Below, in pieces: positions 32,100 through 60,167 of a stretch of DNA of 64,000 nucleotides. A model generated the notes under the pieces. It was given only the letters and a program-made list of their open reading frames with translations. It ran no database searches and was not told where the DNA came from. Source of the stretch: Eledone cirrhosa (taxonomy: Eukaryota). The first letter of the stretch is position 1. The number at the start of each line of letters is the position of its first letter. The position numbers and the translations under genes are program-made. The stretch covers positions 54,312,001-54,376,000 of the forward strand of contig OZ024749.1 in the NCBI GenBank assembly GCA_964016885.1. The letters run 5' to 3'.

Positions 32100-32305
32100 A
32101 TAATGGTTCCTGAATTAAGTACAAGGCCAACAATTTTGTGGGGAGGGGAAACAACAAACTTGCCACCGTTAAAACCCCGCCGAGGTTAACTTTACCTTTC
32201 ATCCTTCAGAGATAAAATAAAGTACCAGTCAACCACTTGGGTCGATACAATAGACTTTACCTTCGTCACAAATTGCAGGCCTTGTTCCTAGATTAGAAAG
32301 CATTG
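32100..32305. mobile_element. Two SINE family 1 fragments in opposite orientation (minus 32100-32150, plus 32173-32305)
   Basis: ACAAGGCCAACAATTTT (reverse 3' end), then the CCCGCCGAGGTTAACTTT core. Confidence 0.75.
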
Positions 32306-33097: not shown

Positions 33098-33318
33098 GGG
33101 GTATAATTGGTAGAGCATCGTATAACACCACATGATGGGTTTCAGTTACCTCCAAACACGTTCTAAGTTCAAATCCCGCCGAGGTTAGCTTTGCCTTTCG
33201 TCCTTACGGGGGTGGATAAAATAAAGTACCAGTAATGTACTGGGGTAGACTTAATCGACTTTCCCTTCCCCAACAAAAAAATTGCTGGCCTTGTGACTAT
33301 AGTAGAAATTATTATTAT
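33098..33318 (+). mobile_element. SINE family 1
   Basis: Head, core and tail present. Confidence 0.9.
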
Positions 33319-33426: not shown

Positions 33427-33430
<4 letters not shown>

Positions 33431-33550
33431 AAATGGCTTCTACAGGACTAAAACTGTTTCATTCAGAGGAAATCATCAAAAAAGTCCTGCTATGTATTGA
33501 GTACCTTACTTACTGTGGTTACCCCCCGATTGAACCCGGGATAAACTTAT
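33427..33550. mobile_element. TA-embedded element family B (inverted hammerhead-like head fused to tail)
   Basis: GCTTCTACAGGACTA...TTTCATTC...TCATCA and CTGCTATGTATTGAGTACC...AACTTA both match 59291-59558. Confidence 0.85.
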
Positions 33551-33698
33551 ATATATATTTAAAAGTTAAACAAGGTTCAATGAATAAATCAAACAATGAG
33601 TTTTACAATAGATTGGAAGCACTCAACAAAAATGGTTTTCCAGAGCTATTAATATTAATTCAAAATATTAACAAAATAGATATTCTTGTGATCAAGCA

Positions 33699-33765
33699 TA
33701 TTTTATTATACATATTTCAGAGGTACTGAGCTAACTGCAACAGTACGTCCTCATCAGATAAAATA
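33699..33765 (-). ncRNA. Type I hammerhead ribozyme (left arm of element C)
   Basis: Mirror of 34288-34354 with identical core and stems. Loop II reads UUGCAGUUAGCU. Confidence 0.75.
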
Positions 33766-34287
33766 AGATGATGCATGACATACCCTGACATAGTAGAGGG
33801 TTAAGACTCAGTCATGGTAGTGAGTAAGATATGACAAAACTCAATATTTATATACCTTAATATTGAGAAACATGAGCAAAATATATAATACATACAATAG
33901 AGAGGGTGCGTGTGAGACAGCTTTAAAAATACTTGGCATCAATAAAAGACTTGAACATAAGTTATTCCTATTTATCTATCTCTCTCTGTAATCAACTCTC
34001 TTTTGCTTTTCTAGGCCCCTACTAACTATATTATCCCCTCATCTGTCTCTTCCTCTATGCTTTTCTTTTCTATTCTCTTTCTTCAGTAATTTAAATTATG
34101 TAACAGTTATATTGATGCCAAGTATTTTTAAAGCTGTCTCACACGCACCCTCTCTATTGTATGTATTATATATTTTTCTCATGTTTCTCAATATTAAGGT
34201 ATATAAATATTGAGTTTTGTCATATATTACTCACTACCATGACTGAGTCTTAACCATCTACTATGCAGGGTATGTCATGCATCATCT

Positions 34288-34354
34288 TATTTTATCTGAT
34301 GAGGACGTACTGTTGAAGATAACTCAGTACCTCTGAAATATGTATAATAAAATA
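34288..34354 (+). ncRNA. Type I hammerhead ribozyme (right arm of element C)
   Basis: UAUUUUAU-CUGAUGA-GGA C GUACUG[12 nt]CAGUAC C UCU-GAAA-UAUGUAU-A-AUAAAAUA. 8-bp stem I, long stem II, quasi-palindromic stem III, AUA triplet with predicted cut after 34346. Confidence 0.75.
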
Positions 34355-34427
34355 TACTTGATCACAAGAATATCTATTTCGTTAATATTTTGAATTAATA
34401 TATATATATATATATACAGTATATATA

Positions 34428-34596
34428 TGAAAAAAAGGAAAAGAATGACTTCACTTGTAGTGTTAAAAAATGTTTGATTTAATTTTATAATATTATAATA
34501 TAAAATTAAATCAAAAGTTTTTTAACACTACAAGTGAAGTCATTCTTTTCCTTTTTTTCAAATATATCTAACTGTACCAAGGATCTCACACATTTC

Positions 34597-59248: not shown

Positions 59249-59290
<42 letters not shown>

Positions 59291-59293
<3 letters not shown>

Positions 59294-59558
59294 TTATTCC
59301 GGGTTGAATCGGAGGTAACCAGAGTAAGAAAGGTACTCAATACATAGCAGAGTGTAAATGTTTTAATATAGAAGAGCTTCTACAGGACTAGAACTGTTTC
59401 ATTCGTGAGAACTCATCAGGAAGCGCATCCTGATGAGTTCTCACGAATGAAACAGTTCTAGTCCTGTAGAAGCTCTTCTATATTAAAACATTTACACTCT
59501 GCTATGTATTGAGTACCTTTCTTACTCTGGTTACCTCCGATTCAACCCGGAATAACTT
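59291..59558. mobile_element. TA-embedded element family B: perfect 131-bp x2 palindrome, 6-nt spacer
   Basis: 59291-59421 is the exact reverse complement of 59428-59558. Spacer AGCGCA, (TA)n on both sides. Confidence 0.92.
59430..59466 (+). ncRNA. Hammerhead-like core (mirror copy at 59383-59419 on minus strand)
   Basis: CUGAUGA-GUUC UCAC GAAU-GAAAC. Stem I and III pairing is ambiguous because the 5' side is cut at the palindrome centre. Confidence 0.45.
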
Positions 59559-60167
59559 ATATATATATATATATATACACAATCATACGTGCCATATTTG
59601 CATACATATACAGACAAATAAAAAAAGTAACGACATTCAAGACATTCAATCGTCGACTGAAAAGACATATACACTCATTACTTGAGTGCAAGTATATATA
59701 TATATACACACCAACATATATGAACATATATAACTCACTGATATATTCCAAAATAATTGGTACACTATCATGTAGAGACATCTTATCATTATATTGTTAG
59801 TGGTTTAAAATATACGAAGAAGAATAGAAAAAAATTTCAAAGAAATATATTCATACCACAAACTTAATGTTTAAAGTTTTCATACAACCAAGATGTTTCA
59901 GAAAAAAATAACTTTTAAGATGCATCTGTTATATATATATAGCTATATATATATAGCTATATATATATAGCTATATATATATAGCTATATATAGATAGAT
60001 AGATATATATATATAAGAATACGTTTCTCAACTACATAAGGATATATATATATATTATATATGTGTGTGTGTTTTATATATATGTATTCATATATATATA
60101 TGTGTGTGAGTGTGTGTTTTATATATCATATGTAAAACATATATCTATGTTTCATAATTACATTATG

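Follow-up and report, generated by a model that had tools for sequence, protein, structure and literature searches.

The locus at 33553-34401 of the window, the 64,000-nt stretch of Eledone cirrhosa DNA that was analysed here, consists with high confidence (about 0.9) of two 5'-truncated copies of a coding Penelope-like retrotransposon with Hydra-clade motifs, which stand head to head in (TA)n, likely as the outcome of one insertion event, each with a predicted dimer-type hammerhead, and the loop of the element's tail is likely rewritten during copying. The head-to-head pair and its ribozymes are already known in kind and are one of many in the genome, and the copy in the window is a dead fragment without a gene. 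The hypervariable filler of the tail loop matters more than the mirror hammerhead pair, which is a published insertion type. The features of the locus are as follows.

33548..33558, no strand: (TA)n target tract, left side, overlapping the element's own ATAT end
33553..33944, minus strand: left copy, a 5'-truncated Penelope-like element with pLTR and tail
33553..33651, minus strand: tail of about 99 nt, which in tandem copies lies after the pLTR, its end about 60 nt ahead of the ORF
33614..33646, minus strand: tail stem-loop motif (R)CUC ... GUYRAGUGC, common to sister families and predicted to be a protein-binding element
33628..33633, minus strand: hypervariable filler with flanks GGAAAACC / GTTGAG, 6 nt here and 4-15 nt in the family
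33699..33765, minus strand: type I hammerhead motif of the left arm, predicted cut after 33707
33818..33852, minus strand: TATAAA and Inr-like TCACT (A at 33821) of the left copy, a likely outward promoter that mirrors the right-arm site
33944..33945, no strand: head-to-head junction of the two 5'-truncated copies, with 0-2 nt of microhomology
33945..34401, plus strand: right copy, 5'-truncated, without tail; 33945-34109 is its 3' UTR
34202..34236, plus strand: TATAAA (34202) and Inr-like TCACT (A at 34233), where family 5' ends cluster; likely transcription start
34288..34354, plus strand: type I hammerhead motif of the right arm, loop II at 34313-34324, predicted cut after 34346
34401..34416, no strand: (TA)n target tract, right side

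The inverted pair and its parent element

Alignment of the arms (33652-33944, 293 nt, and 34110-34401, 292 nt) revealed nine differences, eight substitutions and one indel, of which three (34316, 34319 and 34322) fall within the 12 nt of loop II and none in the core or stems, as an earlier interpretation made from the letters alone (the sequence-only reading) had described for inverted repeats of about 292 bp. The tail that it had placed on one arm is present, at about 99 nt rather than about 95. Both outer ends of the pair lie within (TA)n, and no target-site duplication is readable because the left tract overlaps the ATAT end of the element. The junction at 33944/33945 shows no palindrome. 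The apparent spacer is aligned over its whole length by other loci (21 of 28 match through to 33945-33949) and is therefore the upstream 3' UTR of the right copy. Neither a direct repeat, nor a tandem array of hammerhead units, nor an ORF is present at the locus, meaning that the Penelope insertion signature proposed earlier is retained in its Penelope origin, inverted pair and tail and lost in its direct repeat. No host exon was recognised by simple ORF listing, a procedure that cannot exclude an intron.

The element sits in the (TA)n at the end of a remnant of a second Penelope family (33430-33547), which comprises two oppositely oriented pieces and has very deep coverage in one raw-read run. 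Directly after the (TA)n of the right arm there is a separate palindrome of about 160 bp (34415-34576), 91% self-complementary and with TA-CAGT ... ACTG-TA ends, which we take to resemble a small TA-targeting MITE. A dispersed SINE-like repeat with a GATAAAATAAAGTACCAG motif occurs at 32211-32264, 33144-33268 and several other places and is also inserted in family copies. The open frame of 683 codons at 12697-14745 (plus strand), which repeats a unit about 14 residues long, is probably a minisatellite.

Among the family copies examined, the arm sequence is the 3' end of copies carrying a gene for RT and a GIY-YIG endonuclease, and the 5' ends differ from copy to copy. The search for such a parent, recommended in the sequence-only reading, thus yielded coding copies, none with an intact ORF in the loci examined (longest open stretch, 396 aa). 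The unit measures 4.4-4.5 kb (repeat-to-repeat distance 4436 nt in L162 and 4540 nt in L164), and its 3' end takes one of two fixed positions, that of the pLTR or that of the tail, which are separated by about 100 nt; in tandem copies the tail is followed by about 60 nt and the ATG. Searching the 3.0 Gb genome with the arm gave 1,778 first-look candidates, and the 42 matches listed are 95-100% identical. At least 1,489 copies bear the tail, most of them adjoined downstream by (TA)n.

Judged by its motifs and by eye, the family can be counted as Hydra-like, as a new and long representative. Its copies carry N-terminally the Hydra-type motifs RVRWRA (RWR, with R for K) and SDKT (DKT) and, in L050, the linker CNCRNKPDC (CxCX5C) followed by CNLC (CxxC) and CLH (CxH) in the endonuclease, and the resemblance to the Hydra-1_Obim protein (PMC8557442 supplement) was assessed by eye. 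Four proteins of 694-727 aa, among 5,174 candidates, match the family protein at 30-37%. In Pfam, RVT_1 gave a weak match below the cut-off and the GIY-YIG endonuclease was not matched. The family displays the traits of EN+ Penelope-like elements, namely RT and GIY-YIG in one ORF (recognised by motifs, no copy being intact), a sense hammerhead in the pLTR, partial tandem pLTRs, an inverted 5'-truncated copy and an optional tail (about 100 nt rather than 30-40), as well as the (TA)n insertion of the Hydra clade. The unit exceeds the "generally short, <3 kb" length of that clade, which the accessible text of PMC8557442 gives as a tendency.

These observations bear on the alternative that the arms are terminal inverted repeats of a DNA transposon (MITE), which the sequence-only reading had named as the explanation that could overturn its own. 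Inverted arms in a TA tract would conform to such an element; however, single arms and pairs with other junctions make up most of the copies, an RT-coding element has the arm as its 3' end and the ribozyme core covaries. None of the copies inspected combined a transposase with fixed ends and terminal inverted repeats, and this identity is ruled out, its remaining chance being negligible.

The 88 loci used (L072-L161, two duplicates omitted) contained 27 head-to-head pairs, and in 22 of the 23 that could be scored both arms have the same loop II lineage marker. The 5' and 3' pLTRs are mutual nearest relatives in five of five tandems (1.7-4.7% vs 4.2-15% between loci), one of these (L168) being a near tie. 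Some 5' pLTRs of 450-1,220 nt (L162, L164, L166 and L167) reach well beyond the likely transcription start on its upstream side and nevertheless agree with the 3' copy of the same element; this suggests that templates were longer than one unit or copied repeatedly.

Hammerhead motifs and likely promoters of the arms

Each arm contains an 8-bp stem I (UAUUUUAU/AUAAAAUA), CUGAUGA, a stem II of 10 positions with one C.C mismatch and a G.U first pair, GAAA, AUAUGUAU and AUA as NUH, in line with the type I consensus (CUGANGA, GAAA, NUH, stems I and II). A type I descriptor matches exactly twice in the 64-kb window, on the two arms, and not at all in 50 shuffled windows, in agreement with the 8-bp stem I, extended stem II, palindromic stem III and cut after 34346 (plus strand) that had been predicted beforehand. 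Rfam reported no hammerhead here with E-values up to 10, and the best 150 of 519 matches in the whole-window scan were only microsatellite-driven miRNA models. The top miRNA matches, all below the gathering score, are driven by short inverted arms around (TA)n at 28214-28314 that form a perfect hairpin. Single-strand folds of the hammerheads and tail were no better than shuffles (z -0.2 to -1.4), and folding energy is therefore no evidence.

Across 91 distinct descriptor matches from the fetched loci, N7 is occupied by all four bases, stem pairs change, and stem III is self-complementary in 88 (at least 3/4 pairs; all 88 tabulated at 4/4, G.U allowed) and reaches 2/4 in one more; the descriptor itself forces part of the pairing in stems I and II, though not that in stem III or the base at N7. 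In place of the G10.1-C11.1 pair both arms have G.U, and G-C occurs in 4 of the 91 matches; the published Hydra motifs likewise vary at this place, according to the accessible part of PMC8557442. Stem III is an 8-nt palindrome, and its duplex is predicted here at only -2.2 kcal/mol.

Of the variants present in at least four of 104 family copies, five fall in loop II (12 columns) and one in the core and stems (55 columns; p = 0.0004), and rare changes are even along the motif (1.0-1.9%). This distribution of lineage-shared variants, with a tolerant loop II and constrained core and stems, fits selection in active lineages. The concentration of arm-to-arm differences in loop II, to which the sequence-only reading had drawn attention, did not extend to 36 other pairs (13/358 vs 115/4094 cells, 3.6% vs 2.5-3.0%, p = 0.41), and loop II was rejected as an arm-to-arm hot spot; constraint is visible only in the lineage-shared variants. 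The three of nine differences within 12 of 295 positions in the window have a nominal P of 0.005, in a comparison chosen after the fact, and most likely represent chance or hot spots.

The 5' ends of 35 of 99 scored copies lie at 34230-34249, around the Inr-like TCACT 31 nt after TATAAA, in a scoring where 21 rows stop at an indel or the reference end and several breaks near 34377 are spurious; in an independent run, 6 of 11 joints listed end at 34231-34239. Based on this cluster, each arm likely carries its own outward TATA/Inr-like promoter. The hammerhead cut (34346-34347) was discarded as a common 5' end, with only 2 of the 99 copies starting there.

According to the sequence-only reading, the locus would be a non-coding Penelope derivative whose transcripts could self-cleave from either strand and would form long dsRNA; in the form weighed here, the derivative would be non-autonomous and similar to a retrozyme, and would act on host transcripts. 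The locus without ORF and the many short, pLTR-only family copies that begin near 34233 would agree with this proposal, as would the 292-bp hairpin (about -472 to -493 kcal/mol) into which a read-through transcript is predicted to fold. There is, however, no common non-coding unit, since each junction point is a truncation of the coding element peculiar to this locus, and the tandem hammerhead array is missing. Besides, the predicted fold of the read-through transcript pairs 64-65 of the 67 bases of the ribozyme with the opposite arm; the hairpin would bury the ribozyme, and cleavage and long dsRNA are therefore predicted to exclude each other, so that their combination is doubtful. Metazoan PLE hammerheads cleave weakly and as dimers, as stated in the accessible part of PMC4209133, and in the element PAc cleavage required protein and was dispensable for insertion (PMC11167929, accessible part). 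A non-coding derivative is accordingly very improbable and, as an account of what the locus is, largely refuted, and the reading as truncated copies of a coding element is preferred.

The hypervariable filler of the tail loop

One pattern for the filler matched 547 copies, as against 0 for the control. It comprises 66 variants in 90 copies (the first 90 places among the matches listed) and 80 in 122 copies when all other fetched loci are included. The same filler is present in 3 of 62 near-identical pairs (<3% diverged over at least 330 nt upstream), where a fraction of 0.83 (about 83%) would be expected at the flank's rate; the 62 pairs come from 31 copies and are not independent, some alignments span the inverted partner arm, and one of the three filler-sharing pairs is a tandem's own two ends. 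In head-to-head pairs with two tails, the filler differs in seven of seven (one spurious row dropped).

One explanation for this diversity is that the filler is not rewritten and that an unconstrained loop drifted in hundreds of long-lived source lineages and was shuffled by template switching. The upstream 3' UTRs, which differ by 4-15% between lineages, the inheritance of the loop in sister families and the similar behaviour of hammerhead loop II are compatible with drift. On the other hand, pairs only 1.7-3.3% apart over 417-527 nt, i.e. within the range of the 5' and 3' copies inside one insertion, have fillers that differ by several edits, and a sub-lineage with five common markers has a distinct filler in every copy listed. 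Drift is thus considered unlikely, and rewriting of the filler at some RNA or RT step probable.

The variation is neither an artefact nor DNA hypermutation, because host duplicates keep the filler (5/5, 2/2 and 2/2) and raw reads of two runs exhibit the same heterogeneity; the latter led to the rejection of assembly error and the former to that of hypermutation after insertion. Five host duplicates of one insertion (L215-L219) are located within 400 kb, at 217.3-217.7 Mb of one contig, with 95-99% identity, and L214 contains an inverted duplication, 1.5 kb in size, that surrounds (TA)n.

The filler lies in the loop of the tail stem-loop motif ACUC ... GUYRAGUGC. Its middle positions are rich in T (215) and A (133) over C (24) and G (14). 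Fillers of 10-15 nt (n=27) are T-rich tracts starting after CC, CCC or CCA in 26 cases, and the remaining one repeats the right flank. At the left edge GGAAAA is kept in 11 of 11 short cases, and the right edge is eroded in one. The last two bases of the filler can fully pair with the upstream YGG in 106 of 122 copies. At position -2 all 122 copies have a pyrimidine (C or T), as would fit a paired or templated base under selection, and this weighs against a template jump of the RT. The first base tracks the subfamily (A in 38/44, T in 37/44, p = 2.5e-13). The filler is identical at both ends of the tandem L164 and differs in L168, and two separate neighbouring insertions 1.7 kb apart (L213) share one filler. 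Only 3 of the first 100 tails listed start inside the filler; RT therefore does not often fall off there, which likewise speaks against a jump, and an obligatory RNA 5' end at this place was not supported as its origin.

Part of this evidence is also compatible with error-prone copying, in which the RNA stays intact and the RT slips and misincorporates while crossing a protein-bound loop. Copies ending at the loop do not pile up, the edge bases keep lineage memory, and the T-run length is variable, with one copy repeating the right flank, all of which would be expected from such errors; against them, most changes are exchanges of A and T or insertions, and neither the flanking AAAA nor the other T runs vary. 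RT error is therefore somewhat unlikely, with better prospects than drift, and an origin other than break and rejoining, RT error or drift is improbable.

Sister families with the same tail motif and hammerhead layout give 21,052 pattern matches genome-wide, about 14 times the studied family, and differ from one another in stem II (L171-L200). The dominant sister family mostly inherits its loop, indicating that rewriting is not universal; the minor sisters look variable by eye. Together with the memory of the first base and the shared fillers of L164 and L213, this inheritance leads to the conclusion that rewriting is frequent, partial and family-specific. A near-perfect palindrome of 320 bp at 59251-59571, between (TA)n tracts, is likely a head-to-head pair of another Penelope family, judging from its halves, which start at a hammerhead-like CTGATGA ... 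GAAA core cut off 5' and each carry an ACTC ... TTGAGT motif. The 3' end of Hydra-2_Amil (PMC8557442 supplement, accessible part) has a similar GCTC-hairpin-TT-GAGC motif, and the tail stem-loop may thus be clade-wide.

A model can be proposed in which an endonuclease would nick both (TA)n strands, two reverse transcriptions would begin inside the RNA at two AU-rich sites flanking the tail stem-loop (cf. PAc), both would stop early and the cDNA ends would be joined. The filler would arise if the RNA were cut or ended in the loop after ...GGAAAACC(A) and U/A residues were added, followed by rejoining of the RNA, or by a template jump of the RT that adds untemplated bases, with the stem keeping the two ends together. 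This precise route is favoured over RT error and drift, but is tentative and has slightly less than even odds. A similarly tentative extension is that a new tag of 4-15 nt is written into the tail loop in nearly every round, by cutting of the RNA in a protein-held stem-loop, U/A tailing and rejoining or RT jumping, and that the tag would represent the hidden seam of a pseudo-circular unit.

A spot that is sharply bounded, variable between sister cDNAs and stable in DNA points to the step and place of template breakage, rejoining or miscopying. The filler may serve as a per-event tag of whether the two arms came from one RNA or two, with the sister family with a stable loop as a built-in control. 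The regeneration of tandem pLTRs, tails and inverted pairs in PLEs is described as open in the accessible parts of PMC8557442 and PMC11167929; a tag rewritten each round would explain the regeneration of pLTR and tail in cis, and each insertion would be naturally barcoded. No published report of a rewritten tail loop was found in a search that covered mainly openly available papers and, for PMC11167929 and bioRxiv 10.64898/2026.07.22.740005, accessible main text.

Comparison with known systems

The closest parallels are in the Hydra clade of C-terminal EN+ PLEs, which includes Hydra-1_Obim and is defined in the accessible text (section 11) of PMC8557442 by an RWK motif, the change of DKG to DKT, a CxCX5C linker, CxxC and CxH, (TA)n insertion and a length generally <3 kb. 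The studied family shares with it the RT followed by a C-terminal endonuclease, the RWK-like/DKT, CxCX5C, CxxC and CxH motifs, (TA)n targets, a sense hammerhead near the 3' end, an inverted 5'-truncated copy at the 5' end and an optional tail. Unlike the published clade, its 4.4-4.5 kb unit contains a 3' UTR of about 2 kb, its tail is of about 100 nt instead of 30-40 nt, its stem III is an 8-nt palindrome and its tail loop is hypervariable, a trait without mention in the accessible text.

The chemistries able to write a U/A-rich junction are known from other retroelements, since the R2 RT performs untemplated addition and template jumping (PMC8857657) and LINE-1 undergoes uridylation (PMC6191937). 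The analogy is only one of chemistry, as neither report, in its accessible part, covers the rewriting of a fixed internal retroelement loop.

Poseidon PAc of Anolis, studied in vitro (PMC11167929, accessible part), resembles the family in that two internal RT start sites bound a tail, targets are AT-rich and the pLTR contains a hammerhead. In contrast to PAc, the two ends of the studied family are about 100 nt apart and both AT-alternating, and could pair with a (TA)n primer, its ORF starts after the tail and not inside the ribozyme, and no variable loop is reported for PAc in that part of the text.

The head-to-head structure of truncated copies has been described in both PMC8557442 and PMC3846280 (accessible parts). 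The latter reports for Adineta Penelope head-to-head inverted pLTRs, an optional tail and a TATA box with Inr-like TCACT in the pLTR, as in the studied family, and proposes self-priming on an antisense template, whereas the junction studied here has no palindrome and only 0-2 nt of microhomology. Finally, the non-LTR retrozymes described in the accessible part of bioRxiv 10.64898/2026.07.22.740005 have in common with the locus a type I hammerhead of Penelope origin and the lack of an ORF; they are direct tandem arrays of one unit, whereas the studied locus is an inverted pair with unequal truncations and was not assigned to that class.
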